A program made the position numbers and the translations under genes. Below are positions 20,503-39,628 of a stretch of 64,000 nt of DNA, in pieces. The stretch lies in NCBI GenBank assembly GCA_964372465.1, contig CAYJRA010000002.1, positions 16,024 through 80,023 on the forward strand, given 5' to 3'. The notes beneath the pieces were generated by a model that made no database searches, was not told the DNA's origin, and saw only the letters and a list, made by a program, of their open reading frames with translations. The stretch is from an uncultured archaeon. Its GTDB lineage: Archaea > Aenigmatarchaeota > Aenigmatarchaeia > CG10238-14. The stretch's first letter is position 1. Each line of letters opens with the position of its first letter.

Positions 20503-21600
20503 ATGCCAGTAAATAAAATTGCTGATTTTTCCTTGGAAACGACTCAAATATTAGATGAAAACGGGAATATTGATGAGAACATAATGCCCAAACTTTCTGA
20601 TGGTGATATAAAAGAGCTATATAGATTGATGGTTCAGACAAGAATTTTCGATGAAAAAGCATGGAAATTACAAAGACAGGGTAGAATAAGCACGTATGCT
20701 CCTATTAAAGGACAGGAAGCTAGTGATATCGGTACTTCTTTTGCTTTATCAAAAGATGATTGGATATTTCCAACTTACAGAAACATGGGTGCTTATATTA
20801 CTAGAGGTATGCCAATGGAAAAACTTTTACAATATTGGGGCGGAGATGAGAAAGGCCAGAAGATTCCTGATAATGTTAATACATTTACTTTAGCAATTCC
20901 TGTAGGCACGCAACCATTACATGCAGTTGGTTATGCATGGGCTGCAAAAAAGAGGAAGAAGAATATAGTAGTGTTAACATATATGGGAGAAGCAGCTACA
21001 AGTACCGGTGATTTTCATGAAGCAATGAATTTTGCAGGTGTGTTTAATCTGCCTGTTATATTTGTTGTTGAAAACAATCAATATGCAATTTCTGTCCCAA
21101 GAATCAAACAGACCAGATCCAAAACCATTGCGCAAAAAGCAATTGCGTATGGATTTGATGGCGTTCAGGTCGATGGTAATGATGTTTTTGCCGTGATCAA
21201 AGCGACTAAGGATGCGATTGAGAAAGCCAAACAGGATAAAGGTCCAACACTAATCGAATGCGTAACTTATAGAATTGGCCATCATACAACAGCAGATGAT
21301 TACACTAGATATAGAACAGAGGAAGAAGTTCAAAATTGGGTCCAAAAAGATCCAATTGAAAGATTGAGGAAATATATGGAAAATAAGAAATTATGGACTA
21401 AAGAATTTGGCGATAAAATATTGAAAGAAGCTGAAGAGAATGTCGAAAAGGCGGTTATTGCAATGGAATCATTACCTAAACCAAAACCAGACGAATTCTT
21501 TGATTATGTATTTGCAGAACAAACAAAAAATTTGAAAGAGCAGAGAGAATATTTGCTGAGATCGCTTGAAGAAAGAGAGAAAGAGGTAAGATTCCCTTAG
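20503..21600 (+). CDS. 2-oxoacid (pyruvate/branched-chain) dehydrogenase E1 alpha subunit
   Basis: TPP motif GEAATSTGDFHEAMNFA...VVENNQYAIS, 365 aa. Confidence 0.9.
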   Translation: MPVNKIADFSLETTQILDENGNIDENIMPKLSDGDIKELYRLMVQTRIFDEKAWKLQRQGRISTYAPIKGQEASDIGTSFALSKDDWIFPTYRNMGAYITRGMPMEKLLQYWGGDEKGQKIPDNVNTFTLAIPVGTQPLHAVGYAWAAKKRKKNIVVLTYMGEAATSTGDFHEAMNFAGVFNLPVIFVVENNQYAISVPRIKQTRSKTIAQKAIAYGFDGVQVDGNDVFAVIKATKDAIEKAKQDKGPTLIECVTYRIGHHTTADDYTRYRTEEEVQNWVQKDPIERLRKYMENKKLWTKEFGDKILKEAEENVEKAVIAMESLPKPKPDEFFDYVFAEQTKNLKEQREYLLRSLEEREKEVRFP

Positions 21601-21616
21601 TACACAAGGTGTCGAT

Positions 21617-22594
21617 ATGTCACAAGTGAATATGGTTCAAGCACTAAACCAAGCTTTGTTACAAGAGATGGAGAAAGACGAGAGCGTTTTGGTTTTAGGG
21701 GAAGATGTTGGTATTGATGGCGGAGTATTCAGAGTAACTGAAGGATTGCTGCAAAAATTTGGTGAAGAAAGAATAATAGATACACCATTAAGCGAATCTG
21801 GAATAATAGGCGCAGCAATAGGCATGGCTATTTATGGGTTAAAACCAGTTGCCGAAATTCAGTTCAGTGGGTTCATTTATTCAGCATTTGAACAACTAAT
21901 TTCTCATGCTGCAAGAATAAGAAACAGATCAAGAGGAAGATTTACCTGTCCCCTCGTTGTTAGAACTCCGTGCAGTTGGGTTAGTAGGGGATTGGAACAT
22001 CATGAAGAAAGTACTGAAGCATTATTTATCCACATACCAGGACTGAAGGTTGTGATGCCTTCCAATCCTTATGATGCTAAAGGACTTTTGATATCCTCGA
22101 TTAGAGACCCAGATCCAGTTATTTTTTTCGAACCCCTGAGATTATATCGTGCATTCAAACAAGAAGTCCCAGATGAAAGCTATACTATATCAATAGGTGA
22201 AGCTAAAATCATAAAAGAAGGTACAGATATTACTTTAATTTCTTATGGCGCTATGATGCAATCCGTTTTAGAAGCAGTAGATATATTAAAAAGCAATAAT
22301 ATTAACCCAGAAGTGATTGATCTCAGAACATTATCACCCTTAGATAGAGATACTATCTTAAAATCAATTCAAAAAACAGGAAGATGTGCTATCATCAATG
22401 AAGCACCTTTAACATGTGGGTTGAGTGCAGAAATCTCAGCAACTGTAAACGAAAGGGCACTTCTAAGTCTGGAAGCACCAGTCATTAGAATTACTGGTTT
22501 TGATACTAATGTACCTTTGGCAAAATTAGAGAACAATTATATCCCAGATGTAAGAAGAATAGTAGCCGAAGTCAGAAATTTAATGAAATTTTAA
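21617..22594 (+). CDS. 2-oxoacid dehydrogenase E1 beta subunit
   Basis: GEDVGIDGGVFRVT, IDTPLSESGIIG and PGLKVVMPSNPYDAKGLL, 325 aa. Confidence 0.9.
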   Translation: MSQVNMVQALNQALLQEMEKDESVLVLGEDVGIDGGVFRVTEGLLQKFGEERIIDTPLSESGIIGAAIGMAIYGLKPVAEIQFSGFIYSAFEQLISHAARIRNRSRGRFTCPLVVRTPCSWVSRGLEHHEESTEALFIHIPGLKVVMPSNPYDAKGLLISSIRDPDPVIFFEPLRLYRAFKQEVPDESYTISIGEAKIIKEGTDITLISYGAMMQSVLEAVDILKSNNINPEVIDLRTLSPLDRDTILKSIQKTGRCAIINEAPLTCGLSAEISATVNERALLSLEAPVIRITGFDTNVPLAKLENNYIPDVRRIVAEVRNLMKF

Positions 22595-22595
22595 A

Positions 22596-22955
22596 ATGGT
22601 TCAAATGACAGTTGAAATTTATAAACACGATACAGGTAGGTTATTTATTAGTCATTCGGATAAAAAACTAAGTACGGGTCTGTTACTTCTAAACCCCCAT
22701 ACTGAGTTTCAGAAACACAATAGGTCAGTCCAGGAGCAACTAGTGCAAGTTTTTGGAAGATGTACGATAAAAATTTTTGAAAATGGAAAAATTAAAGAAA
22801 TATCTTTGAAAGAAGGAGGAAAACTAAAAATTAGACCAAACCAGTACCACACCCATTCTAATCCATATGATAATATTTCTATTACTTTGTGGAAATTTGA
22901 GGGAGATATAACAGAGATTATAAGAAACTTAAGAAAAAATCTAAGGAGATTATAA
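22596..22955 (+). CDS. small cupin-like protein embedded in the dehydrogenase operon
   Basis: GGKLKIRPNQYHTHSN fits cupin motif 2 (G-x5-P-x3-H-x-H-x-N). Tight coupling: TAA-n-ATG upstream, TAATG overlap downstream. Confidence 0.5.
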   Translation: MVQMTVEIYKHDTGRLFISHSDKKLSTGLLLLNPHTEFQKHNRSVQEQLVQVFGRCTIKIFENGKIKEISLKEGGKLKIRPNQYHTHSNPYDNISITLWKFEGDITEIIRNLRKNLRRL

Positions 22956-24190
22956 TGTCATTTGAGTTTAAATTTCCAGATGTAGGAGAAGGAATACACG
23001 AAGGTGAATTAGTAAAGTGGTTAGTTAAAGAAGGAGACAAAATAAAAGCAGATCAGCCTATTGCAGAAATAGAGACTGATAAAGCTGTTGTTGAAATACC
23101 TTCTCCAAAAAATGGTGTTGTATTGAGGTTAAACTGGAAACCGGGAGATACTATTAAAGTTGGCGAGATTCTGCTTGTTTTAGGAGAAGAAGGTGAAAAG
23201 GCATCAGAAGTTCAGATAGAAAAACAAGAAATGAAATCTTTGGAAAAAATACAAGAAAAATTAGAAACACCATCAAATATTTTAAAACCTACTATATTTG
23301 CCACACCCGCAACTAAAAAAATAGCTAAGGAGTTGAATATTGATTTATCAAAAGTCGTGGGTACAGGTTCTAATGGGAGAATAACTGATCAAGATGTTAG
23401 AAATTATGCTAATAAAATTCAGAATATTAAACCCGAAATTTCTAAAGAAGAAATAAAGGCACCCAAAATTACTTTTGAAAAATACGGTGAAATTCTAAAA
23501 ATACCATTAAAAGGAATGAGAAAGACAATTGCAGAAAATATGGTTAGATCAAAGTTTACAGCCACTCATGTTACCCACATGGATGAAGTAGACATAACAG
23601 ATTTGGTTAAAGTAAGAGAGAAAGAAAAAAAATTAGCTGAAAATTATGGAATTCATCTCACATTCTTACCTTTTATAATAAAAGCATTATTAGCAGCATT
23701 GAAGGAGCACCCGTATTTGAATTCCAGTTTAGATGAAGAAAAGCAAGAGATTGTTATCAAAAAATATTATAATATAGGAATAGCTGTTCAAACATCAGAT
23801 GGGCTTATGGTACCTGTTGTAAAAAGAGTTGATGATAAAAGCATAATGGAATTAGCTAAGGAAATTCAAGATTTGGCTGAAAAAGCTAAAGCAAGAAGAA
23901 TAGACATAGAGGACATGAAAGGAGGAACATTTACAATAACTAATTACGGATCTATTGGAGGCATATATGGCACGCCAATAATTAATTATCCTGAAGTTGC
24001 TATTTTAGGTGTTGGTAGAATAATAGAAAAACCAGTCGTCAAAAACAAAAAGATAGTTATTAGAAAAATTTTACCATTATCCCTCACATTTGATCATAGA
24101 GTTGTTGATGGCGCTGAAGTAGCTGAATTTATGAATTCTGTTATAAGAAGATTAGAAGATCCTGATACGTTGTTAATGTATGTTGATTAG
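22955..24190 (+). CDS. 2-oxoacid dehydrogenase E2 (dihydrolipoamide acyltransferase)
   Basis: Lipoyl motif IETDKAVVEIPS, subunit-binding domain ATPATKKIAKELNIDLSKVVGTGSNGRIT, catalytic DHRVVDGA. Confidence 0.9.
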   Translation: MSFEFKFPDVGEGIHEGELVKWLVKEGDKIKADQPIAEIETDKAVVEIPSPKNGVVLRLNWKPGDTIKVGEILLVLGEEGEKASEVQIEKQEMKSLEKIQEKLETPSNILKPTIFATPATKKIAKELNIDLSKVVGTGSNGRITDQDVRNYANKIQNIKPEISKEEIKAPKITFEKYGEILKIPLKGMRKTIAENMVRSKFTATHVTHMDEVDITDLVKVREKEKKLAENYGIHLTFLPFIIKALLAALKEHPYLNSSLDEEKQEIVIKKYYNIGIAVQTSDGLMVPVVKRVDDKSIMELAKEIQDLAEKAKARRIDIEDMKGGTFTITNYGSIGGIYGTPIINYPEVAILGVGRIIEKPVVKNKKIVIRKILPLSLTFDHRVVDGAEVAEFMNSVIRRLEDPDTLLMYVD

Positions 24191-25248: not shown

Positions 25249-26004
25249 TTATTTTTTATAGAGTTTGAATTGTTTTAATTTTCTCTTAGTTGAAAGAAGA
25301 TATTTTTTAGTTTTTTGTTCTCTTATTACAAACATATCGGCCTTTTCTTCTTCTTTGGCAGAATCGCGGTTGAACCCAGAGATTAAAGAAATCGGAGAAA
25401 ACAACCTTAATATGGAAAAGGAAAATTTAATAATTGAAGACTTCTCTTTTAGATGTGAAAGTTCATGCAACACAACTGATTCTATTTCCATTCTTTTTAG
25501 AATATCTAAAGCACCAACTGATAAAAACACGGCAGATTTAAAACTTTTGAACGAGAATGCTATTGGTTCTGCTTTGTCTAAAGCATATATTTTTGGTGTG
25601 TTGATTTTTAGTTTTTTGGAATATTTTTTGACAAAAAAATACAAATAACCATTTTTTATCTCCCTTTTTTTATTTGTTAATATATACAGAGATGGTATAA
25701 TAAAAAAACCTGATATGGAAGATAATATTAAAGTTGTTGGAATGGCATAAGATACCAACGAGACTATGCTATTATAGCAAGGCATACACGCTGCCCCGCA
25801 TCCTACATGAGTCCCAAACAAAACAAAAGGGAATATAAAAGTTGTTAAATGCGTATATATTAATGAGAGTCTTAATTTGGTTGAAATATTACTTTTTCTT
25901 AGAAAAAAGAAACTTATTAGTGATATTGCTAACGATATTGAAGATATAATAATTTTTTGTGGATCTAATATTAATCCAATAAAACACCCAATTTTTCCAA
26001 TCAT
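25249..26004 (-). CDS. BlaR1/M48-like membrane zinc protease (signal-transducing anti-repressor type)
   Basis: Four to five TM helices, HELSH (HExxH), downstream EEEKAD (ExxAD). Intramembrane Cys cluster GCGAACMPC. Its ATGA overlaps the upstream BlaI-like gene. Confidence 0.7.
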   Translation of the reverse strand: MIGKIGCFIGLILDPQKIIISSISLAISLISFFFLRKSNISTKLRLSLIYTHLTTFIFPFVLFGTHVGCGAACMPCYNSIVSLVSYAIPTTLILSSISGFFIIPSLYILTNKKREIKNGYLYFFVKKYSKKLKINTPKIYALDKAEPIAFSFKSFKSAVFLSVGALDILKRMEIESVVLHELSHLKEKSSIIKFSFSILRLFSPISLISGFNRDSAKEEEKADMFVIREQKTKKYLLSTKRKLKQFKLYKK

Positions 26005-26393
26005 TTATTCCCAACTCTTTTTGAAAATCTTTCATTAAAATAATTGACAGCAGACGGGCCAAAAACATCTATTAATTTGTTTATTGAATTTTCTATTATA
26101 GATTTTTCTAGTTGAGTTTTGTTTTCTGAGGGTGAATATATATAATGAGTTCCACCTCTACCATTTTCTACCTTTCTTTGAACCAACCCCTTTTTGTATA
26201 GTCTATCTAAAATGACGGCAATGCTTGTCAAAGCGACCTTTCTTTTTTTCTTTAACGTGTTGTATATATCTCTGACTTTGGCCTCGTTTTTTTCGAATAG
26301 CGTATTAATTACATCAGATTCTAACGGACTAAGAAAAAATTCTAGACCCTTCCTATCAAATCTTATTTTATTTATGTTAACCATTAATTTCAC
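26001..26393 (-). CDS. BlaI/MecI/CopY-family winged-helix repressor
   Basis: LSPLESDVINTLFEKNEAKVRDIYNTL...LTSIAVILDRLYKKGLVQRKVENGRGGTHYIYSP matches the Penicillinase_R pattern. Confidence 0.8.
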   Translation of the reverse strand: MKLMVNINKIRFDRKGLEFFLSPLESDVINTLFEKNEAKVRDIYNTLKKKRKVALTSIAVILDRLYKKGLVQRKVENGRGGTHYIYSPSENKTQLEKSIIENSINKLIDVFGPSAVNYFNERFSKRVGNK

Positions 26394-27278: not shown

Positions 27279-27500
27279 ATGAATACAAATTTATTGTTGA
27301 GTGTTTTGATTGGAGCAATGGTATTAGTTTCAGTGTTGCAAGCTATACAATTGTTTAGTCTTCAATCGGCTCTAAGTGGTGGAATATCACTAGGTACTTC
27401 AGGCAGTAAATCTGCAAGTGCTTCATCAAGTGGACAAAGTGGATCGGCTCAATTACCATCCAATTTGGGAAACTTACCTCAGATGGTTGGTGGTTGTTAA
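27279..27500 (+). CDS. 73-aa secreted/anchored Ser-Gly-rich peptide ending in -LPQMVGGC
   Basis: Strong SD (AAAGGAGGT, 7 nt before the ATG). N-terminal hydrophobic helix, low-complexity SGSKSASASSSGQSGS, and a single Cys as the last residue. Confidence 0.65.
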   Translation: MNTNLLLSVLIGAMVLVSVLQAIQLFSLQSALSGGISLGTSGSKSASASSSGQSGSAQLPSNLGNLPQMVGGC

Positions 27501-27522
27501 TTTTTTTATTGGATGATGTTTA

Positions 27523-28704
27523 ATGGCCGATAATAGAAGACATAAGTCTAGAAGCAAGGAACAAAGAATTTCCATAAATTTGGATACGTTATTTTTATTT
27601 TTATTTTTAGCTTTAGTCTTGGCTCAAATTTTTAACTTACTCACCGTTTTTGGTATAACAAACAGAATAAAAGGAGAAACAGATAAACAGAAAGAATTGG
27701 CTAGACCAGCCGATTTAAAACTCATGAAGATTATAGACAGTTCTTGCAAATCATGTTTTGAAATCAATGATATTATAGAAGAAATTAAACAAAAAAATGT
27801 AAAACTTTTGGATGAGAAAACGGTTGAGTTTAATTCTCAAGAAGGCAGAGGCTTTATTTCTAAATATAACATACAAAAAATTCCAGCGTTAATTATAACA
27901 GGTGAAGTTAATAAATCGGTCGATTTGGAAGAATATTTTAAAGAAAATGGAAAGATTGTTGGAAATGATACAAAAATCATTTTATTTACAAATATTAGAC
28001 CACCTTATTTTGATTTAACCAGGAATAAAGTTGCCGGCCTTGTTTCCATAATAAGTATAGTTGATACAGATTGCAAAGAGTGTTCATCTTTAAATAATGT
28101 TTTAGTTGCTTTTAAAGCGTCAAATGTAGAGGTATCAGATACAAAAACAGTAGAATACAATTCAGATGAAGGTCGCGAATTGATAAGGAAATACGAAATT
28201 CAGAGGATCCCAGCTATTGTTATATCGAATGATATAAAAGAATATGAAGATATCTATTTTGCTCTATCCAGACTAAATGTTACTGAAAAAGATGGCAATT
28301 ATGCATTGCACACAATTTCTCCGCCATATTTAGATGTAAAATCGGGAAAGACTATGGGCTTAACAACATTAATAATGTTGAGTGACTCGTCTTGTGATGA
28401 ATGCTATAATGTAACAACTCACAAGTCTATAATACCCAATTTTGGTATAATTATATCAAAAGAATCATCTTATGATATTAGTTCTTCAGAAGGCAAAAAA
28501 TTAGTTGGAAAATATAATATAACAAAGGTCCCAACTATCGTTTTATCTTCAGACGCTAAAGAATATCCACAATTTTTACAAGTTTGGAATTCTGTCGGTA
28601 CAGTTGAAAAAGATAATTGGTTTGTTTTTAGAAAAATAGAAGTCATGGGAACATATAAAGACTTAACGTCAAATGAAGTGGTTGCTCCTCCAGAAGGGCA
28701 ATAA
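27523..28704 (+). CDS. membrane-anchored protein with three tandem thioredoxin-like repeats, each with CxxC
   Basis: N-terminal TM. Repeats of about 105 aa carry SCKSC, DCKEC and SCDEC, each followed by KIPA/RIPA/KVPT (cis-Pro position). Confidence 0.7.
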   Translation: MADNRRHKSRSKEQRISINLDTLFLFLFLALVLAQIFNLLTVFGITNRIKGETDKQKELARPADLKLMKIIDSSCKSCFEINDIIEEIKQKNVKLLDEKTVEFNSQEGRGFISKYNIQKIPALIITGEVNKSVDLEEYFKENGKIVGNDTKIILFTNIRPPYFDLTRNKVAGLVSIISIVDTDCKECSSLNNVLVAFKASNVEVSDTKTVEYNSDEGRELIRKYEIQRIPAIVISNDIKEYEDIYFALSRLNVTEKDGNYALHTISPPYLDVKSGKTMGLTTLIMLSDSSCDECYNVTTHKSIIPNFGIIISKESSYDISSSEGKKLVGKYNITKVPTIVLSSDAKEYPQFLQVWNSVGTVEKDNWFVFRKIEVMGTYKDLTSNEVVAPPEGQ

Positions 28705-28742
28705 CTTAAATAGTTACCTTTTCAAATTTTGTAAAGGATAGC

Positions 28743-29753
28743 ATGAAAATATTGAATTATTTTTTGATCTTATTTTTTAGTGTACATTACATCAATTTAG
28801 TTTTAGCTTATGAGGCAGACTTTCCTCATAACGATGGAATACCCGAAAATTTGATAAAAGTTAAAATAGAAAGCTTGTCAGAGGTTCAAAAACTAACTAT
28901 ATTATCTGCATTTGTTGGCGGTATATTGTTATTTTTTGCGCCATGCAGCATAGGTTTACTTCCAGCTTATTTTGCCTCTACATTCAAAAATAAAACAAAT
29001 CTTGTATTGATGACTTTAGCCTTTTTTATCGGTTTTGCATCATTCAATGCTTTCTTAGGTCTGGGAGCTTCTATATTGGGTAATTGGATATTAATATATC
29101 AACCAAAAATTGTCTTGTTATCCGGTTTGTTAATAATTGTGTTTGGTCTAATGTTAATTTTTGGAATCTCTTTTAGTTTATTTAACATGAAAAATAAAAT
29201 TGGAAACAGTTTTTTTGAAAACATTATTTTTGGTGCATTATTTTCATTTGGTTATGCCGGGTGTGCTGGGCCAATAGTATTTAGCATACTTACTTTAGCA
29301 TCTACTTTACCCATTATTTTAGCTGCCTTTTTGATGTTTGTTTATTCTCTTGGTATGTCTATACCGTTAATTATAATCTCCTTACTTTTTGATAAAATAA
29401 AGATTTTTGATAGGTCAATATTCAGAAAATCTATTGAATTTAAGTTATTTGAAAAAACAATATACACGAGTGTTACTAACATAATTGGTGGTCTTATTTT
29501 TGTGCTTTTGGGACTTGTGTATTTAGTTTATAATAGTACAGGTGTTTTTCATCAAATACCACTGAATATATCGCAACCTATTTATGATTTCGTTTATGAC
29601 AAACAAAAATTATTTGTTAACTTGTTTAGTTCTTCTTTTTATAATATAATAGGGATAAGTCTTATTGCCATAATATTTTTCTTTATTGTTAAAAGTATGT
29701 TGAATTCTAGTACAATATCAAAAAATAAAAGAGGCATAGATAAATTTAAATAA
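28743..29753 (+). CDS. CcdA/DsbD-family transmembrane thiol-disulfide electron transporter
   Basis: Polytopic. FAPCSIGLLPAY and GYAGCAGPIVF are the two conserved intramembrane Cys motifs. Confidence 0.75.
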   Translation: MKILNYFLILFFSVHYINLVLAYEADFPHNDGIPENLIKVKIESLSEVQKLTILSAFVGGILLFFAPCSIGLLPAYFASTFKNKTNLVLMTLAFFIGFASFNAFLGLGASILGNWILIYQPKIVLLSGLLIIVFGLMLIFGISFSLFNMKNKIGNSFFENIIFGALFSFGYAGCAGPIVFSILTLASTLPIILAAFLMFVYSLGMSIPLIIISLLFDKIKIFDRSIFRKSIEFKLFEKTIYTSVTNIIGGLIFVLLGLVYLVYNSTGVFHQIPLNISQPIYDFVYDKQKLFVNLFSSSFYNIIGISLIAIIFFFIVKSMLNSSTISKNKRGIDKFK

Positions 29754-31570: not shown

Positions 31571-32686
31571 TTAATTGTTTATTAACATTGAGAGTTTATT
31601 TAAGGCATTTAGTTTATCTTTTTTTTCTAGTTTTGCACTTTGAATGATTTCTCTCAAAGAGGCGATAACATCATCATAATGATTTTTATTAATCTCATAT
31701 GGTATTTTATCTTTACCTCCTACACAAAATGAGAATTTTGCTGGATCTTTCCAGCTAGGTTTTGAGCCATAGATTAATTCAGAAATCAAAGCCAATGATC
31801 TTACAGTTTTTTCACCAACCCCATGGAGTGAAATTAATTCTTCATAGTTTTTAGGTTGAAATTCATAAATTTTTCTTAGAGTATTCCAACTTCTTTTTGA
31901 TATATCTATAGGAAGTATTTTATGATCTCTATGCATGTCAAGAACATCTATATTATTAAAGTCAAGAAATTGACCCAGCATTGTTTGATGGGATAATCTG
32001 AAATATTTACTCAAATGTTTCGGGTTGTCTTTAACTATATCCAAACTTATATCTCTTGTTTCTTTGCTCTCTTTAGCAACCATGTTCAACCCCTCAACTT
32101 TTATATCGCAACAAATTGCCTTATGGGGTTCTTCTACAAAAGAATTTACATTATTATGGATCCAGTGGTATCTACGTGCATATTTTATCTCACTGTTTAA
32201 CCCCTGTTGAATTACAACCCATTTACCGCCTTCTGTGACAACGAAAGAATGATGGTATAAAGAAAACCCAGATTGTATTAAGGAATTGTCGACTTTGGCT
32301 ACAATTTTGCTAGTATATTTTAATTTTTCTATTTTACTAGATGACAAAGAAAACTTATTTCCAATAATTTCCAATTCTTTTAATGTTTTTTTCGATGCAG
32401 TCCCCTTACCACCAGCTATAGCTATATTAGATTCTTTTGTGTTTAACACCAGTTTAAGAGCTCCCAAAGTAACGGTGGTGCATCCACTTGAGTGATGATC
32501 GTAACCCAATATACATGATAGAGCCTGAAACCAATAAGGATCGGATAGTCTCTTTAGAAGATTTTCATTCCCATATTCTGAAATTATTATATCTGATATT
32601 GGTTTAGCTAAATTAACCATTCTTTTAAATAACCATTTTGGTGTTGAGCCTGAATGAAGAGGCAAATTTGCTATTCCCAATTTCAA
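31571..32686 (-). CDS. DUF763-family protein with HhH motif
   Basis: N-terminus GIANLPLHSGSTPKWLFKRM is typical of DUF763. LHGVGEKTVRSLALISELIYG is an HhH. Confidence 0.65.
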   Translation of the reverse strand: MKLGIANLPLHSGSTPKWLFKRMVNLAKPISDIIISEYGNENLLKRLSDPYWFQALSCILGYDHHSSGCTTVTLGALKLVLNTKESNIAIAGGKGTASKKTLKELEIIGNKFSLSSSKIEKLKYTSKIVAKVDNSLIQSGFSLYHHSFVVTEGGKWVVIQQGLNSEIKYARRYHWIHNNVNSFVEEPHKAICCDIKVEGLNMVAKESKETRDISLDIVKDNPKHLSKYFRLSHQTMLGQFLDFNNIDVLDMHRDHKILPIDISKRSWNTLRKIYEFQPKNYEELISLHGVGEKTVRSLALISELIYGSKPSWKDPAKFSFCVGGKDKIPYEINKNHYDDVIASLREIIQSAKLEKKDKLNALNKLSMLINN

Positions 32687-32692
32687 ATTATT

Positions 32693-32833
32693 CTACCATT
32701 TGTTTGAGCTCAATATTGACTCCAATAAAATATTCATATTTTCAGTGTTCCCACATCTGAGACAAAGTAAGGTTTTAGTCATTCCATGTATGAATTTATA
32801 AAATCTATGTCCACTGCATGTTTTGCATTTCAT
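32693..32833 (-). CDS. small zinc-ribbon protein (46 aa), not in ORF track
   Basis: Hand translation MKCKTCSGHRFYKFIHGMTKTLLCLRCGNTENMNILLESILSSNKW*. GAGGTGA SD 6 nt upstream. Stop lies 6 nt before the DUF763 start. Confidence 0.5.
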   Translation of the reverse strand: MKCKTCSGHRFYKFIHGMTKTLLCLRCGNTENMNILLESILSSNKW

Positions 32834-33101
32834 ATAAATCACCTCTTATCTTCTATTAAAGAAAAACAAGTTATATCGTATTCGAAGGAGTACAGTTTCT
32901 TTGAATGTGAAAAAGAGAGTATATTATGACTTATTTTGATTAAAATAAGCTATAATATAATTCAAAAAAATATCTTTTGAATTTTTGTGATTTTAATCAC
33001 GAATTTAGATTATTTTAATTTTTAGAAACCAAATTCAGGATTCTATTATTTCTTAATGTGTAAACCCAGTTCTTTTAAATTCGTCTTGTTTAATAATAGT
33101 A

Positions 33102-33234
33102 ATGAAAAAATTCATAATGATAGCAGATGTCGTGATTAACAAAGATGGTAAAATATTAATCATAAAAGAGAAACTCTAGAAAAGAATTTGCTCCAAATAA
33201 GTGGGGTTTTTCTGGCGATAAAGACAAATTTTGA
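33102..33234 (+). pseudogene. remnant of a Nudix hydrolase N-terminus (stop plus frameshift, truncated)
   Basis: MKKFIMIADVVINKDGKILIIKEKL* then, in the +1 frame, KEFAPNKWGFSGDKDKF*. This resembles the start of the intact Nudix gene at 62935..63354 (VLAIVKNDNKFLLTKR...GKWGFVGE). Confidence 0.4.
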
Positions 33235-33266
33235 TAGATTCTTTTGAGTATTTTTCATCTCTTTAA

Positions 33267-33656
33267 TTAATTTTTTTCTTTCAAGTTATATTTGTATATT
33301 TTATACATTTCTTCAATTTTTTCATCATCTATATGTTTTCCAAAAGATTTATGCGGTAACAACCCACCGCCAAACGATTTAGGTATATGCATCAACTCAT
33401 GGATTAGAGTCTTATCCTGTTCTTCTTTACTTAACTTATCAAATTTATGTGATATAACTTCAATAACATAATGTGCCCTCATACTCAACGCTTTTTGCCA
33501 AATTTTAGGAAAACTCCATATACGTGCTAAAGCTCTAGATTTTGATCCATAACTTCTTATACAAAACACTCTTTCCATATCAACATGTTTTATTTGTAGA
33601 ACATCTACTAGACGATTTAATCTCTCTTTTATATCTAAAGCCGTTTCGAATTTCAT
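33267..33656 (-). CDS. small putative zinc metallopeptidase (HExxH)
   Basis: 129 aa, LIHELMHIPKSFGGGLLPH. Resembles the archaeal predicted-metallopeptidase family. Confidence 0.6.
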   Translation of the reverse strand: MKFETALDIKERLNRLVDVLQIKHVDMERVFCIRSYGSKSRALARIWSFPKIWQKALSMRAHYVIEVISHKFDKLSKEEQDKTLIHELMHIPKSFGGGLLPHKSFGKHIDDEKIEEMYKIYKYNLKEKN

Positions 33657-33694
33657 AGAATCAGTTAGTTTAATTTATTATATAAAGATTCATT

Positions 33695-34690
33695 CTAACT
33701 TCCCATATATTTTACAAATATAGTTTTTGCCTGGTCTTCACTTTTAACCCCTGATACTATAGATCTACCATTTTTATATAGTGAAATTTGCTTATCACCA
33801 CTTTTAAAATGGAGCAAATATTTGTTATAATAAACCTCTCCCGATTTTTTTAATCTGTCAGAAATGTTTTTGAAATTGTTAATTCTCGTATCAGTATTTA
33901 TCTGAAAAGAATTTTGTCCACACATTCGTGTTATTTTTGATCCAATAGTCCCATTTAAGAAAACGAAATTCTTTTTTACGCAAGTCTCACATTTTGGATT
34001 TTTATTTATATGCAATGACTCAAAAGTATCATTTAGCATATCCACTCTAAAAATTTTTTTTGGCGCCTTTCCTATAGAAAGTATTTTTAATGCTTCCCTT
34101 ATCTGTATAGATGCTATTATAGAAGGAAGAGAATTAGATATACCAGCACTTTCACATGTTTCTAAGTCTTCAGTTCTTGGTATTTCTCTAAAAACGCATC
34201 TAAAACAAATTTTCTCAGGCAAAATATTGAAACTAGCACCAACGCTTCCAATTACCCCGCCATATACCCACGGAATTTTGTTTTTAATGCAAATATCGTT
34301 AATAAGAAATCTACTCTCGAGATTATCAGTGCCGTCAACGACTAAGTCAATATCTTTTAACAGTTTCCAGGCATTTTTAAAATTAAAATCATCAACCATT
34401 GCATTAATTTTTACTTTTGGGTGAATGTGATGAATTCTCTTTTTAGCAGCTATAGCTTTCGGTACGCCTATATCGCTTTTTGTGTATAATATCTGATTTT
34501 CCAGATTTCTTAATTCTACAAAGTCTCTGTCTATTACAGTTAATTTTTTTATACCATTTTTAGCTAATAATTCAGCAGATCTACTTCCTAAAGCGCCAAC
34601 TCCTATTACAGCTACATGCTTTTTTGACAATTTATTATGACTGAATTTGATATTTTTTGTTCTTAATTTTGTTATGTTCATACCTTTCAT
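33695..34690 (-). CDS. ThiF/MoeB/HesA-family E1-like adenylyltransferase with about 90-aa C-terminal extension
   Basis: VAVIGVGALGSRSAELLAKNGIKKLTVIDRDFVELRNLENQ. CxxC pairs CFRC and CETC. Extra C-terminal domain ...ISLYKNGRSIVSGVKSEDQAKTIF. Confidence 0.85.
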   Translation of the reverse strand: MKGMNITKLRTKNIKFSHNKLSKKHVAVIGVGALGSRSAELLAKNGIKKLTVIDRDFVELRNLENQILYTKSDIGVPKAIAAKKRIHHIHPKVKINAMVDDFNFKNAWKLLKDIDLVVDGTDNLESRFLINDICIKNKIPWVYGGVIGSVGASFNILPEKICFRCVFREIPRTEDLETCESAGISNSLPSIIASIQIREALKILSIGKAPKKIFRVDMLNDTFESLHINKNPKCETCVKKNFVFLNGTIGSKITRMCGQNSFQINTDTRINNFKNISDRLKKSGEVYYNKYLLHFKSGDKQISLYKNGRSIVSGVKSEDQAKTIFVKYMGS

Positions 34691-34723
34691 AAGGAAATTA
34701 AAATGTTAATATTAAAAATCACT

Positions 34724-36082
34724 CTAAAAACCGTTATTAAGCTCTTCTTTAAATATACTAATTACCTTGTTCTTTATCCCACCTGGCATGGTTTTAGAAT
34801 TAAATACGCCAAAGAATTTTTTATACAATTCGTCTTCCCTCTCTTTAGCTTCATCTAAATATTTTTGTTTGAATAATTGAATAACGGGTCCAGTCTCACC
34901 TCTTTTATATGCCAAATAAAATGCAAATAACAATTCATCTCTATTTAATCCACTGTCGTCATAAGGTATGCCGTGCTTTGTGGTTCCATTGAACAACGAA
35001 AACATTCTTGCATATTTTTCGTTGAACAGGTTTTCTCTAAATCCAAGATTCTTTACATCTACGCCTATTGCTTTCAAGAACACAAAAATTCTTGCACATT
35101 TTGTACACATGTGGCACCATTGGTTTTCTGGGGATGGCGGATAATTATCAGGGAAACAAGAAAATTGAAACTGTCCAAGATTTTTATATCTATTGTGTAA
35201 TATTTTTATTACAGCCAACTCGTTTATAGGCTCCACTATACTAAAAACGCCTGTTTTATTGTTAGTTATTATTTTCATTAGATTGCTTAATTCGATTGTC
35301 CAGTCGCTAGTTTGGTCAAAAACCGGATATGATCTGTAGCCCTCGGAATTTATGTAGAAATCATTACAGCTTTTTTCATTACCAAAAATAACAAATTTTA
35401 TTTTGTTTGCATCCACTATGGGTAAAGAATGCATGGCATATTGTGTTAATTCGCTTCCATAACCCCATTCTGTATCAGGTTTGTTAAAATTCGTAGCATC
35501 ACATAGATCATAAAAGTTCGTGTTGACTCTTACGATGTTTTTATTAAGTTTTTTTGAAAAAACCTTTGAGTATCTTCTTTTTATTTTAGTTTCTATTGGG
35601 AGCGATGGCGTTTCAAAATATATTAAATCATTGTCTAGTCCTATTTCATCACATATTCCAAGAGTGACTAGGCTTTCCTTTCCAAATGTAAAGTTAATCA
35701 ATGCTTTTTCATCAGGTTCAAAATCACTCTCAGGTAATTTCATATTGTAATCCTCAAAATCAAACTCTAGATTTATGAATTTCATTAAGAACTGTGAGGT
35801 GGATATCTTATCGGCATCTGTCGAATAGGGTATATATTTTATCATCATTTGATAAACCCACGGCTTCATTAATGGCTCTGCTGTGTTGAATTTAATTTTA
35901 TTTTCATCAAAAATCATAGGAAGATGGAAGGTTCCTAAGAATGGTAAATTGTCCAATAAAAAATTTTTCATTCCATTTTTGTAGTTTTTCCAAGATGTAG
36001 TATTATATCTAATGAAATATTTTCTTCCCAGCACATTCGTGTGCATTCCGCTTCTTGTTAAATGTGATTTTACTTCTAACAT
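34724..36082 (-). CDS. QueC-like / PP-loop-superfamily protein with degenerate PP-loop and N- and C-terminal extensions (putative)
   Basis: Motifs follow the order and spacing of QueC: TFGKES (for SGGxDS), FGNEKSCND...YPVFDQ, SIVEPINEL, FSCF, then CHMCTKCARIF (C-x2-C-x2-C-x-R). Confidence 0.45.
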   Translation of the reverse strand: MLEVKSHLTRSGMHTNVLGRKYFIRYNTTSWKNYKNGMKNFLLDNLPFLGTFHLPMIFDENKIKFNTAEPLMKPWVYQMMIKYIPYSTDADKISTSQFLMKFINLEFDFEDYNMKLPESDFEPDEKALINFTFGKESLVTLGICDEIGLDNDLIYFETPSLPIETKIKRRYSKVFSKKLNKNIVRVNTNFYDLCDATNFNKPDTEWGYGSELTQYAMHSLPIVDANKIKFVIFGNEKSCNDFYINSEGYRSYPVFDQTSDWTIELSNLMKIITNNKTGVFSIVEPINELAVIKILHNRYKNLGQFQFSCFPDNYPPSPENQWCHMCTKCARIFVFLKAIGVDVKNLGFRENLFNEKYARMFSLFNGTTKHGIPYDDSGLNRDELLFAFYLAYKRGETGPVIQLFKQKYLDEAKEREDELYKKFFGVFNSKTMPGGIKNKVISIFKEELNNGF

Positions 36083-36164
36083 TTTTCTGAATTAAACAAT
36101 TTTATTATTAACATAACAAAATTAGTATTTTGTATATAAAAAATTATACAGTTTTTTTCTTTAT

Positions 36165-37211
36165 TTACACATATTTATTGCTAGTTGATAATGCGCTTGC
36201 CATGATTTTTGAGAGAACTTTTTTGAATGGTACACCATAAAGTTTGGTTATATTTCCTATTGCACAGTCACAAGTATCAGGACCCAATGCCGGATTGGTA
36301 TTACAGTCGATAAAGTAAATTCTTTTTTTATTATCCATCCTTATATCAAACTTTGCATAATCTGCCATTCCTAACAGATCAAAGGCCTTCTTAGATAATC
36401 TTGTAACCCTTCCACTATTTTTGAATTTTTCATAATAATATGAATCTTCTTCTAACCAAGTTGCATCGAAACTACAGAAATTATATTTTCTTTTTTTTGT
36501 TGATTTGAAAATTTTTTCGCCAATATATACACTATCCTTTCTTCCCTCTAGTACTATGGCTGATAATTCCCTACCATCGATAAATTCTTCAACAACTACT
36601 GGTGATTTATAAGTATTTATCAGATATCTCAATCTTTTTCTTAAATGCTTCTCATTCTCACTTATAGCGTCATTCGTAATGCCGACACCACCATGATAAT
36701 TATTAAGTTTTGTTATCACGGGATATTTGGTTCTTTTTGATATTGGCTCTTTCCAATTTTTGACTAACTGATATTTGGGGGTCGGTATATCATGTGCTAT
36801 CAATAATTCTTTAATTAAAACTTTGTTGCTCGATAAAGTAAATGTATACATGCCGCTTCCTGTATAAGGAATTTGAGCTAAATCCAATACTGCTGGTATG
36901 CATGTGCTCAATAATTCCGTTCCTCTCACAGTATCGACTAAGTTCAAAACCAAATCAGGTCTATCTTCTTGAATATTATTCATCAAAGTTTCGTCTCCGG
37001 GGTATAATTTTGCCTCGAATCCCATTTGTTTTAAAATTTTTTGAAGAACTTTTGCTCTCCCAAACACTTCTTCTTCAGATATGTATGCTTCTTCTGTTGG
37101 AAAATATTCTCTCTCTGCCTTGCTGTATGCTATACCAACCAGTTTTATATTACGTTTTTGAAGAATTTTCATTCCGTTTTTTAATGGAGGAGGATCAACA
37201 CTTTCAGTCAT
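36165..37211 (-). CDS. ATP-grasp ligase, D-Ala-D-Ala-ligase-like
   Basis: IKLVGIAYS...EEEV N-domain. KYPVITKLNNYHGGVGI, VVVEEFIDGRELS and YAKFDIRMDNKKRIYFIDCNTNPALGP. Met14 (37172) is an alternative start. Confidence 0.8.
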   Translation of the reverse strand: MTESVDPPPLKNGMKILQKRNIKLVGIAYSKAEREYFPTEEAYISEEEVFGRAKVLQKILKQMGFEAKLYPGDETLMNNIQEDRPDLVLNLVDTVRGTELLSTCIPAVLDLAQIPYTGSGMYTFTLSSNKVLIKELLIAHDIPTPKYQLVKNWKEPISKRTKYPVITKLNNYHGGVGITNDAISENEKHLRKRLRYLINTYKSPVVVEEFIDGRELSAIVLEGRKDSVYIGEKIFKSTKKRKYNFCSFDATWLEEDSYYYEKFKNSGRVTRLSKKAFDLLGMADYAKFDIRMDNKKRIYFIDCNTNPALGPDTCDCAIGNITKLYGVPFKKVLSKIMASALSTSNKYV

Positions 37212-37230: not shown

Positions 37231-37242
37231 AACTCTCACTTT
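37231..37242 (+). repeat. 12-mer boundary repeat copy 1 (AACTCTCACTTT)
   Basis: Exact copy. Overlaps the ndk stop codon and lies 20 nt upstream of the ATP-grasp start. Confidence 0.9.
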
Positions 37243-37802
37243 CCAAGAATCAGTTCTTCATCCACTCTTTTGTAAGAAACGATTTCCTCTTTTTTGAACC
37301 AAAAATTAATTTCCTTTTCAGCATCTTCTTTACTAGTTGAAGCGTGTACTAAATTTCTAGAAGCTCTCTTTTGGTCATTTGCATTCTCTAAGGAGTCAGC
37401 AGAATAATCACCCCTGATAGTTCCAGCATCTGCTATTCTTGGTTCCGTTGTACCCACTATTTTCCTAACTATCTCAATAGCATTTGATCCTTCTACAACA
37501 CTTAAAACAACAGGCCCCAATAAAAGAAAATCTACCAGCCAAGATTTTACCATTAAACCATATTCTTTGTAATCCATTTTGAATTCTCTGCCTTTGTCTC
37601 TATAGCTTCTTTCACCCTTCTTGCCAATGTTGATTAACCATTCTTTATCACTAGGATAAAAACTTTCGGCTTGCTTCTTTGTAGGATAAGCCATTTTCAA
37701 TGCAACTATCTTTAAGCCAGTTCTTTCAATTCTTTTGTATACTTCCCCAACGAGACCTCTTTTTACCCCGTCAGGCTTGACCATTAAGAATGTTCTTTCC
37801 AT
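37236..37802 (-). CDS. ndk: nucleoside diphosphate kinase with internal insertions
   Basis: MERTFLMVKPDGVKRGLVGEV, TIRGDY and NLVHAS (catalytic His). 188 aa versus the usual roughly 140-150, because of an insertion after FYPSD. Confidence 0.9.
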   Translation of the reverse strand: MERTFLMVKPDGVKRGLVGEVYKRIERTGLKIVALKMAYPTKKQAESFYPSDKEWLINIGKKGERSYRDKGREFKMDYKEYGLMVKSWLVDFLLLGPVVLSVVEGSNAIEIVRKIVGTTEPRIADAGTIRGDYSADSLENANDQKRASRNLVHASTSKEDAEKEINFWFKKEEIVSYKRVDEELILGK

Positions 37803-37848: not shown

Positions 37849-37860
37849 AACTCTCACTTT
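37849..37860 (+). repeat. 12-mer boundary repeat copy 2 (AACTCTCACTTT)
   Basis: Exact copy. 47 nt upstream of the ndk start, 24 nt after the stop of the 97-aa membrane gene. Confidence 0.9.
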
Positions 37861-38294: not shown

Positions 38295-38306
38295 AACTCT
38301 CACTTT
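38295..38306 (+). repeat. 12-mer boundary repeat copy 3 (AACTCTCACTTT)
   Basis: Exact copy in the divergent intergenic region, 59 nt upstream of the plus-strand gene at 38366. Confidence 0.9.
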
Positions 38307-38365: not shown

Positions 38366-38686
38366 ATGACTGAAGTTGTTTATGGCACTCTATTTCCTTC
38401 CGTTAGACCTAAATTGGAAGAAAGAGGATTTTCATTACAGGAAATAAATCAAGGAGATGTGATATGGGGTTTTGATGGAGTTACTAAATATTTCCCAGAA
38501 GATAATTATATCAGAGAATCTGTTAACGGATCACCGTCTTTAGCTTTAAAATTAAGGAAAACATCGACGGGGGTCACACTTATCATTAATTCTTTGCCGT
38601 TTCAATCAAAACACCATTTAGATAAGGCACCTTTAAAAGAAGATGATATTGTTCGCACGGTTGATGAATATATTAAAAAGATGTAA
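38366..38686 (+). CDS. hypothetical protein
   Basis: 106-aa ORF. No family recognised. Flanked on both sides by the 12-mer. Confidence 0.5.
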   Translation: MTEVVYGTLFPSVRPKLEERGFSLQEINQGDVIWGFDGVTKYFPEDNYIRESVNGSPSLALKLRKTSTGVTLIINSLPFQSKHHLDKAPLKEDDIVRTVDEYIKKM

Positions 38687-38697
38687 ACTCTCACTTT
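38686..38697 (+). repeat. 12-mer boundary repeat copy 4 (AACTCTCACTTT)
   Basis: Exact copy. Its first base is the last base of the TAA stop of 38366..38686. It lies 6 nt from the stop of the convergent gene. Confidence 0.9.
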
Positions 38698-39148: not shown

Positions 39149-39562
39149 TTAGGCAATAAACGATAATTTATCCCCAACATCCACCCAATTATACTTAGAT
39201 TCAACCAATTCAACCATATATCTATACTTTTCTTTGGGTATATAGAATCTAAAAGGCTTCATCTTTGTTTTCTCAACAACTCTCAATTTATCGTCTGCCA
39301 GTATGACAGTTATAGGAAAGCTCATGAACCAAGTATGTATTCCTTCCGGATAGTCTATCTCAAACACCATTGCATCTTTCTTGGTAAACCTTTGAGTTTT
39401 GAGCACATCATATATGTACTTATTCTCAGTCTTGTATGGTATTAATCCCGCCATCAGCTCGAAAATTGACCTTCTGAATATTATATTTTCAGCCAGAACT
39501 CTCTCTTTCGTTCTATTTATTATTTTCATTCTAATTATTTCTATCCTGAAAAATTTAACCAT
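39149..39562 (-). CDS. DUF192-like protein
   Basis: Pattern ...ELMAGLIPYK...DAMVFEIDYPEGIHTWFMSFPITVILADDKLRVV...YMVELVES...VGDKLSF resembles DUF192. Met12 (39529) is an alternative start. Confidence 0.55.
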   Translation of the reverse strand: MVKFFRIEIIRMKIINRTKERVLAENIIFRRSIFELMAGLIPYKTENKYIYDVLKTQRFTKKDAMVFEIDYPEGIHTWFMSFPITVILADDKLRVVEKTKMKPFRFYIPKEKYRYMVELVESKYNWVDVGDKLSFIA

Positions 39563-39616: not shown

Positions 39617-39628
39617 AACTCTCACTTT
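39617..39628 (+). repeat. 12-mer boundary repeat copy 6 (AACTCTCACTTT)
   Basis: Exact copy, 55 nt upstream of the start at 39562, at the edge of an AT-rich spacer. Confidence 0.9.

Follow-up and report, generated by a model that had tools for sequence, protein, structure and literature searches.

The archaeal stretch of DNA analysed here (64 kb of contig CAYJRA010000002.1; hereafter the window) carries four consecutive genes on its minus strand, which a first-pass annotation made from the letters of the DNA had suggested might act as one system. We consider it probable, while keeping considerable reservations, that these genes are two or three independent units and that there is no four-gene system. 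The conserved unit is a module of two genes. One encodes a Ddl-family ATP-grasp ligase of 348 amino acids (aa; 36165..37211; Pfam PF07478, 4.8e-14), and the other a protein of 452 aa, here called X (34724..36082), which according to its fold model and the NF041275 profile is MurL-like with a QueC-type PP-loop fold. The remaining two genes encode a MoeB/ThiF-type E1-like adenylyltransferase, called ThiF below (331 aa; 33695..34690; PF00899, 1e-61), and a small HExxH zincin with the motif HELMH, called the peptidase (129 aa; 33267..33656; PF18894, 7e-23). Both would be neighbours of the module and not parts of it.

The first-pass annotation was right about the genes themselves. The four open reading frames (ORFs) lie exactly at its coordinates, with intergenic gaps of 82, 33 and 38 nucleotides (nt), and its calls of a Ddl-like ATP-grasp (Dala_Dala_lig_C domain), a ThiF/MoeB E1 with two CxxC pairs and an extra C-terminal domain, and a small HELMH peptidase all agree with the family searches. 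Its use of the shared orientation is another matter. About 13 genes run in one direction, from 40669 down to 30764, with the four-gene cluster among them and the nucleoside-diphosphate kinase gene NDK (37236..37802, minus strand; PF00334, 4.2e-40) only 24 nt upstream of the ATP-grasp gene on the same strand. Since the co-directional run is this long and the genome is compact (31% GC), co-orientation is weak evidence for a system. The window also holds the archaeal marker genes aEF-1beta, Rpo4 and Pus10, and its closest relatives are Aenigmatarchaeota metagenome-assembled genomes (MAGs).

The decisive evidence is which genes travel together. The window was compared with the loci of the 80 best among 261 genomic matches, all in species-representative genomes, which gives 81 loci in all (cited below by handles such as L001). 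ORFs were called in six frames and searched with profiles made from the window proteins; an ATP-grasp gene was counted as adjacent within 400 nt of X and a ThiF gene within 3 kb. The proposed four-gene system failed this co-occurrence check. A ligase adjoins X in 59 of the 81 loci, while ThiF is found near X in six and the peptidase in four, all of them belonging to one Aenigmatarchaeota subclade. The ligase is a separate ATP-grasp gene in 56 loci, spread over all 17 Asgard loci, 12 of 14 from Bathyarchaeia and their relatives, seven of eight from Aenigmatarchaeota, 11 of 23 from other DPANN, four of seven from the candidate phyla radiation (CPR) and five of 12 with other bacterial labels. The other three loci carry a fusion of 685-714 aa, in which a lysine-2,3-aminomutase-like radical S-adenosylmethionine (SAM) domain is joined to a Ddl-like ATP-grasp directly upstream of X (L014, 45-2138; L025, 7947-10004; L035, 4673-6817). 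A truncated fusion of 541 aa also lies upstream of X in L024 (1242-2867). This Rosetta-stone link suggests that the ligase of those DPANN lineages uses a beta-amino acid.

Other partners of the pair emerged from an unbiased clustering of every ORF within 6 kb of X. In Asgard and Bathyarchaeia, X, the ATP-grasp and a GNAT acetyltransferase gene share one strand, and a fold-type-II pyridoxal-phosphate (PLP) enzyme (PF00291) is convergent with them; about 28-30 species-representative loci within L033-L082 have this set (e.g. L050, 13044-14096; L081, 12460-12996). In Woesearchaeota, Nanoarchaeota and some CPR, one or two ATP-grasps and one or two X paralogues occur with a PLP decarboxylase-like enzyme (PF02784) and a lysine-2,3-aminomutase-like enzyme. 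The Aenigmatarchaeota locus L022 has an aminomutase, the ligase and X, and no ThiF. All these accessories are enzymes that tailor amino acids, and the most likely product of the module is therefore a small compound derived from amino acids. Within about 13 kb of the window cluster there is no gene for an E2, JAMM, NcsA/TtuA, PLP, GNAT or aminomutase protein.

X belongs to a family that sequence searches hardly place. A Pfam scan gave no match at E <= 0.1, and a PDB sequence search none even at E <= 10. The family has 112 word-indexed homologues, conserved along their full length and none functionally named by any source, and a profile search reached 1687 cluster representatives at E <= 1e-3. 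An AlphaFold2 model built with 71 sequences is of high quality (predicted local distance difference test, pLDDT, 93.4; predicted TM score, pTM, 0.92). Foldseek against the PDB gave QatC as the best overall match (E 1.2e-5, 436 aligned columns), then QueC (2pg3, 1.4e-4; 3bl5, 8.4e-4) with target TM scores of 0.56-0.67 and probability 1.00; YcfA, Cap9 (target TM 0.69) and the further PP-loop enzymes TtuA, ThiI and MnmA were matched too. In the model, the core of X is thus confirmed as a Rossmann-like PP-loop (adenine nucleotide alpha-hydrolase) domain with a QueC-type fold. It spans residues ~124-340, between an N-terminal alpha/beta extension (1-~120) and a C-terminal helical extension (~343-452). 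The earlier description of X as a QueC-like protein extended at both ends therefore stands by fold, and by sequence alone it is marginal. Its claim that the motifs follow QueC order stands in part: an hhalign comparison of the X family profile with the single E. coli QueC sequence returns the same register, in an alignment that is itself non-significant (probability 1%). Only 10 of the 71 family members touch the QueC family PF06508 (best E 0.005), and 14 weakly touch DUF6395.

The PP-loop of X, T132-F-G-K-E-S137, had been called degenerate. It is instead a strictly conserved variant, [TS]-F-G-K-[DE]-S, in which G, K and S are invariant in the 71 sequences, F occurs in 66, T or S opens the loop (42 and 29) and D or E stands at the fifth position (49 and 22). 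Compared with the canonical SGGxDS motif, which X does not have, positions 1, 3, 5 and 6 are kept and the second glycine is replaced by phenylalanine. The loop retains the counterparts of S156, D160 and S161, the phosphate-binding loop residues of QatC (PMC13279940). A candidate zinc site of the form Cys-x(n)-Cys-x2-Cys-x2-Cys (C309, C323, C326 and C329 in X) is complete in all 71 sequences. QueC recognises 7-carboxy-7-deazaguanine by the Tyr and Asp of a G-Y-P-D motif (PMC13279940). In the X family the acidic position is kept (D in 51, E in 20) and the stacking Tyr is variable (Y 35, N 17, H 10, F 5), so that the substrate of X is probably not a deazaguanine. An X subtype of 486-491 aa was also noticed, in Gottesmanbacteria, Jorgensenbacteria, other CPR and bacterial-labelled MAGs (L004, 8001-9470 and 9456-10937; also L075, L077, L080, L084 and L085); it forms convergent paralogue pairs, mostly with overlapping 3' ends, and often has no adjacent ATP-grasp. 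Several DPANN loci carry X paralogues in tandem.

The most consistent curated sequence match of the X family, one that the first-pass annotation had missed, is MurL. The window protein matches the MurL model NF041275 with 28.1 bits (E 6.7e-7), its residues 124-337 aligning to positions 137-339 of 447, and 59 of the 71 family members match the same model (best 1.1e-12). The alignment is co-linear over the QueC-like core, and the lengths are close (447 and 452 aa). X is, with statistical support from these profile matches, a distant homologue of MurL and not an equivalog. MurL and MurD2 form the alternative peptidoglycan pathway of Xanthomonas (Feng et al. 2017; reviews PMC5808125 and PMC8788868). 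MurL requires ATP and Mg to invert the C-terminal L-Glu that MurD2 has added, and yields AMP; its authors propose adenylation of the alpha-carboxylate and state that it "lacks known conserved domains" (PMC5808125, PMC8788868).

The ligase is a member of the broader Ddl-type ATP-grasp family (PF07478), and its PDB sequence matches are all D-Ala-D-Ala ligases (best 2.3e-14). Most X-adjacent ligases (41-49 of 56) retain the KPxxxGSS motif, the omega-loop Lys and the E-x-N motif. In the subgroup of the window protein, KPNEEGSS has become KLNNYHGG, the omega-loop Lys is Thr with a Trp beside it, and E-x-N is D-C-N, which suggests altered specificity or catalysis in the Aenigmatarchaeota. The residues that we take to contact the Ddl substrates are, in E. 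coli numbering, Ser150, Lys215/Tyr216 and Ser281/Leu282; the positions that we map to them read GG, T-W and C-D in the window protein, and at the presumed specificity Tyr most X-adjacent ligases have, as we map it, Thr or Trp. The possibility that the window protein is a D-Ala-D-Ala ligase was rejected, as these substrate residues differ and its best score against the NCBIfam Ddl models is 107 bits for a cut-off of 243, none of the Ddl cut-offs being reached. A second Ddl-like ATP-grasp, about 27% identical to that of the window and with no counterpart there, lies some 5 kb downstream of X beside glycogen-metabolism genes in L001 (12724-13746) and, on the opposite strand, in L012 (14373-15278).

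By analogy with MurD2/MurL, we think that the pair is probably a module that ligates, then adenylates the new carboxylate and epimerises the product. What we infer of substrates, adenylation and epimerisation is as follows. The ATP-grasp enzyme would convert ATP to ADP, make an acyl-phosphate and join an amino acid to a carboxylate, giving a small peptide or amide. X, a putative PP-loop-type ATP pyrophosphatase, would bind ATP through its [TS]FGK[DE]S loop and adenylate the new terminal carboxylate, releasing AMP and pyrophosphate; adenylation is the first step of QueC and the step proposed for MurL. X would then invert the C-terminal residue from L to D as MurL does, leaving a D-terminated product that needs no free racemase. 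Epimerisation is favoured, on indirect evidence, since the family matches no other curated sequence model as consistently as that of MurL. In other lineages the pair would be coupled to the lysine-2,3-aminomutase-like radical-SAM enzyme (in some loci as a fusion with the ligase), to the PLP decarboxylase-like enzyme, or to GNAT and the fold-type-II PLP enzyme. ThiF and the zincin beside the module would be the synteny of one Aenigmatarchaeota subclade.

Several observations weigh against this interpretation. The MurL equivalog cut-off is 700 bits and X scores 28, so weak a match that conservation of the reaction type is uncertain. The partner of X is a Ddl-type ATP-grasp, where MurL works with a Mur ligase, and about a quarter of the loci have no ligase next to X, some of them with tandem or convergent X paralogues. 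The block of ATP-grasp, X and ThiF is kept down to 47-49% identity of X (L001, L012), which is compatible with functional coupling. The motif losses that set the window ligase subgroup apart from the other X-adjacent ligases could mean that the function changed in this lineage when ThiF arrived. Finally, the taxonomic labels of the MAGs are automatic and some are plainly wrong. The first-pass annotation had also considered that the genes might map to a known cell-wall pathway. This is borne out as far as the ligase and X are homologous to Ddl and MurL; both fall below the family thresholds, and no Mur-ligase domain occurs in the Pfam-scanned window ORFs from 20.5 to 49.8 kb.

A different outcome of the second step deserves attention, and we regard it as unlikely without being negligible. 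X might not be an epimerase, the adenylated carboxylate being captured by ammonia or an amine, or cyclised, in a reaction resembling those of QueC, the PP-loop amidotransferases or the conjugating enzyme Cap9; the product would carry a C-terminal amide, a ring or a newly formed amide bond. The closest folds argue for this: QueC itself takes a carboxylate to an amide and on to a nitrile, the product of Cap9 is an amide-linked 7-amido-7-deazaguanine conjugate, and X shares with QatC the four-Cys site and three-part architecture. The tandem X paralogues and multiple ligases of DPANN and CPR loci would also fit a stepwise elaboration of peptides. What tips the balance towards epimerisation is that MurL is matched by 59 of 71 family members and Pfam QueC by 10, with a best E of 0.005; moreover, the stacking Tyr of QueC is variable, and neither a glutaminase nor an amine-donor gene is regularly found next to X.

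ThiF is a genuine member of the MoeB/ThiF E1 group: it has the ThiF domain, the catalytic Asp, the two CxxC pairs and the adenylation fold. By sequence it is closest to E. coli MoeB (2.8e-30) and ThiF (8e-26), and its adenylation domain superimposes on both with a target TM of ~0.85 and a root-mean-square deviation of 1.8-2.4 Å; against PRK12475 it scores 266 bits across its full length, below the 510-bit cut-off. D122, N123 and R127 (DN..R), C162/C165 and C234/C237 are invariant in this ThiF type, and the crossover-loop Cys is conserved. The beta-rich C-terminal domain (~250-331; two strands, a helix, four strands, a helix) is family-wide, and among the top PDB fold matches it has no partner, Foldseek having covered the adenylation domain only. 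The ~338-aa type including this domain has 571 homologues at E <= 1e-20 in many bacterial and archaeal phyla. Beside one such homologue, on a Woesearchaeota contig, are SufBD, cysteine desulfurase and NifU; beside another, on a bacterial contig (L088), are MnmA, a PP-loop protein, ThiI, cysteine desulfurase and FdhD. ThiF probably activates a sulfur-carrier or ubiquitin-like (Ubl) protein encoded elsewhere, apart from the ligase-X module. Its nearest kin beyond the Aenigmatarchaeota-like cluster have bacterial labels (e.g. Aminicenantes, 43% identity), and this similarity hints at a horizontal acquisition of the window gene.

The peptidase is, in turn, conserved in DPANN and CPR as a protein of housekeeping type. 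It has 653 homologues of ~125-130 aa, 45-87% identical among those listed, in Aenigmatarchaeota, Micrarchaeota and Patescibacteria, and it is a neighbour of ThiF only in the window and its nearest relatives. In the three distant genomes L089, L090 and L091 its neighbours vary and are never ThiF, X or ATP-grasp. A PDB sequence search with it gave only non-significant matches to T4 endonuclease V. The earlier suggestion that an E1 paired with a peptidase follows the logic of ubiquitin-like conjugation finds no support: the E1-peptidase pair is present in four of the 81 loci, and no Ubl, E2 or JAMM gene lies near it in the window. That no Ubl or ThiS-like gene lies nearby had been seen from the beginning, and a search of the whole 64-kb window for ORFs of 30-160 aa ending in GG(x0-6) agrees, with none near the cluster and no credible Ubl. 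The candidates ending in GG were a 73-aa ORF (27279-27500) with a hydrophobic N-terminus and the end ...MVGGC, one 33-aa ORF and one antisense ORF.

It is nevertheless conceivable, although we find it improbable, that in the Aenigmatarchaeota subclade the ATP-grasp/X pathway has recruited ThiF, and perhaps the zincin as well, either for a thiocarboxylate chemistry with an E1-activated sulfur carrier, like that of TtuA/TtuB/TtuC, or for Ubl-like tagging with processing by the peptidase. The order ATP-grasp, X, ThiF recurs with gaps of 23-36 nt in the window, L001, L007, L008 and L012 at 47-77% identity of X. In L009, where ThiF and the peptidase are inverted with respect to the window and run divergently from ATP-grasp and X, the two genes have stayed together and beside the pair. 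TtuA-type PP-loop sulfurtransferases are among the fold matches of X, the ThiF type adjoins PP-loop enzymes in L088, and the clade's ligase has diverged to an unusual degree. Against recruitment, 75 of the 81 X loci have no ThiF, including L022, and in L011 the slot is empty in an otherwise conserved arrangement (X, 143 nt, a 300-aa gene, DUF763). No Ubl or sulfur-carrier ORF was found in the window, and no E2, JAMM or desulfurase gene nearby. The neighbours of the peptidase elsewhere are unrelated, and in L001 and L012 its place is taken by an unrelated 300-aa ORF, the one that follows X in L011. AT-rich, TATA-like sequence is present in every gap, so that each gene may have a transcript of its own. 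The block conserved in L001, L007, L008 and L012 runs from NDK through ATP-grasp, X and ThiF to DUF763 (31571..32686, minus strand; PF05559, 4.5e-127), which marks its downstream end. We read this as clade-level synteny, because the block also preserves NDK and DUF763, for which no functional link is evident.

The two remaining explanations are weaker still. ATP-grasp and ThiF pairs are known from peptide natural-product pathways, and the first-pass annotation drew this analogy, in which an ATP-grasp macrocyclase or ThiF/MccB-like chemistry would act with a leader peptidase on a ribosomal or other peptide. MccB does appear among the fold matches of ThiF. We reject this explanation as very improbable: the ATP-grasp is of Ddl type and not of graspetide type, ThiF is nearest to MoeB and ThiF, neither an exporter nor a small ORF resembling a precursor is present, and the four genes occur together in one clade only. 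Least probable of all is an anti-virus conjugation system akin to QatABCD, type IV CBASS (cyclic-oligonucleotide-based antiphage signalling system; Cap9) or the Cap2/Bil-type E1 systems, an idea of immune conjugation prompted by the QueC-like and E1-like proteins together, since, although QatC is the best structural match of X with the same architecture and ThiF shares its E1 adenylation domain with the Cap2 E1-E2 models, PADLOC at E <= 1 has nothing for X, ligase or peptidase, meets ThiF only in the generic E1 half without an E2 domain (~70 bits, against 266 for the MoeB/ThiF model), QatA, QatB, QatD, CD-NTase and E2 were not found nearby, and X sits with a metabolic ligase in stable housekeeping synteny across phyla, unlike patchy defence islands.

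The cluster is headed by a copy of a 12-mer repeat, as had been noted. The repeat AACTCTCACTTT is genuine, with five exact and three one-mismatch copies where 0.46 are expected by chance. On the minus, coding strand it reads AAAGTGAGAGTT, with exact copies at 37231-37242, 37849-37860, 38295-38306, 38686-38697 and 39617-39628 and one-mismatch copies at 39278, 39497 and 41042. They lie between genes or at gene ends in the part of the co-directional array that reaches from NDK to DUF192, and nothing is conserved outside the 12 bases. The copy at 37231..37242 overlaps the stop codon of NDK and lies 20 nt upstream of the ATG of the ATP-grasp gene; L007 and L008 have five copies each in the same orientation, one of them also ~20 nt upstream of the ATP-grasp start. 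The repeat is probably a lineage-specific transcription or translation signal.

Around the cluster, a 49-aa zinc-ribbon ORF with CxxC...CxxC (32693-32842, minus strand) stands just upstream of DUF763 and is kept in L007 and L008, and a 424-nt gap (32843-33266) without an Rfam match separates it from the peptidase gene. The Rfam scan of 30-41 kb gave no match at E <= 0.1, and the window is without tRNA genes. A scan for sigma-70 promoters and terminators stayed at background level, and such models are not applicable to archaea. Elsewhere in the window we observed a 2-oxoacid dehydrogenase E1alpha/E1beta/E2 set (20503-24190), a BlaI-like repressor with an M48/M56 BlaR1-like peptidase (25249-26393), and a thioredoxin-repeat protein with a DsbD-like membrane protein (27279-29753).

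In this compact DPANN genome, the shared orientation of three carboxylate-activating enzymes turned out not to signal a system. What the analysis yields in its place is a family, X, that has no Pfam domain and no functional name and is paired with a ligase in Asgard, DPANN and CPR, a pairing that points to a small-molecule or envelope component in these groups. MurL has been described as an unprecedented ATP-dependent peptide epimerase without known domains (PMC5808125, PMC8788868), and a QueC-family survey from 2026 makes no mention of it. Placing its distant relatives in the QueC fold offers a mechanistic frame, namely a PP-loop, carboxylate adenylation and a four-Cys site, and extends the diversification of the QueC scaffold past queuosine synthesis and phage defence. 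It is tempting, though doubtful, to go further and propose that the ligase-X pair is a pathway of ancient origin, so far unrecognised and widespread in Asgard, Bathyarchaeia, DPANN and CPR, which would make small peptides with a terminal D-amino acid or another C-terminal modification without racemases in mostly murein-less cells, with MurL as a QueC-fold enzyme and one clade that is perhaps ThiF-coupled. If this is true, the MurL class of ATP-dependent peptide epimerases, whose mechanism has lacked an explanation, would consist of QueC-fold PP-loop enzymes with a four-Cys site. Our search of the literature on DUF6395, on MurL-like families and homologues, and on Ddl-type ligases in Asgard and DPANN did not find the X family or its pairing described.

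The proteins of the window resemble several known systems and depart from each of them. ThiF shares with MoeB and ThiF (and with TtuC/UbaA) the fold, DN..R, the CxxC pairs and the crossover-loop Cys, and its homologues stand amid sulfur-trafficking genes at two distant loci; it differs in its extra C-terminal domain, and the window has no MoaD, ThiS or SAMP gene. The ligase is a Ddl-family ATP-grasp by Pfam, NCBIfam and PDB, and differs from Ddl in the segment that we map to what is presumably the second-substrate Ser-Leu site. QueC has in common with X the PP-loop core, the motif order, a four-Cys site at the position of its zinc site and, presumably, a chemistry that begins with carboxylate adenylation. 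X differs from it by having no Pfam match, a [TS]FGK[DE]S loop, a variable Tyr, extensions of 120 aa at the N-terminus and 110 aa at the C-terminus, and no queuosine-pathway neighbours. In the published structure of QatC, a QueC core containing a zinc site of four Cys is preceded by an alpha/beta extension and followed by one of three helices (PMC13279940); X shares this three-part layout, although the loop of QatC is the canonical SGGxDS. Unlike QatC and Cap9, X matches no PADLOC model, has no QatA, QatB, QatD or CD-NTase partner, and is paired in stable synteny with a metabolic ligase. MurD2/MurL is found in Xanthomonas, whereas the hosts of X are archaea and CPR bacteria, and no Mur gene was found among the scanned ORFs of the window. 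Within the literature searched, the two-gene module is undescribed. It would be a variant of the MurD2/MurL logic, in which a ligase adds an amino acid (an L-amino acid in the case of MurD2) and an ATP-using enzyme then acts on the new C-terminal carboxylate.

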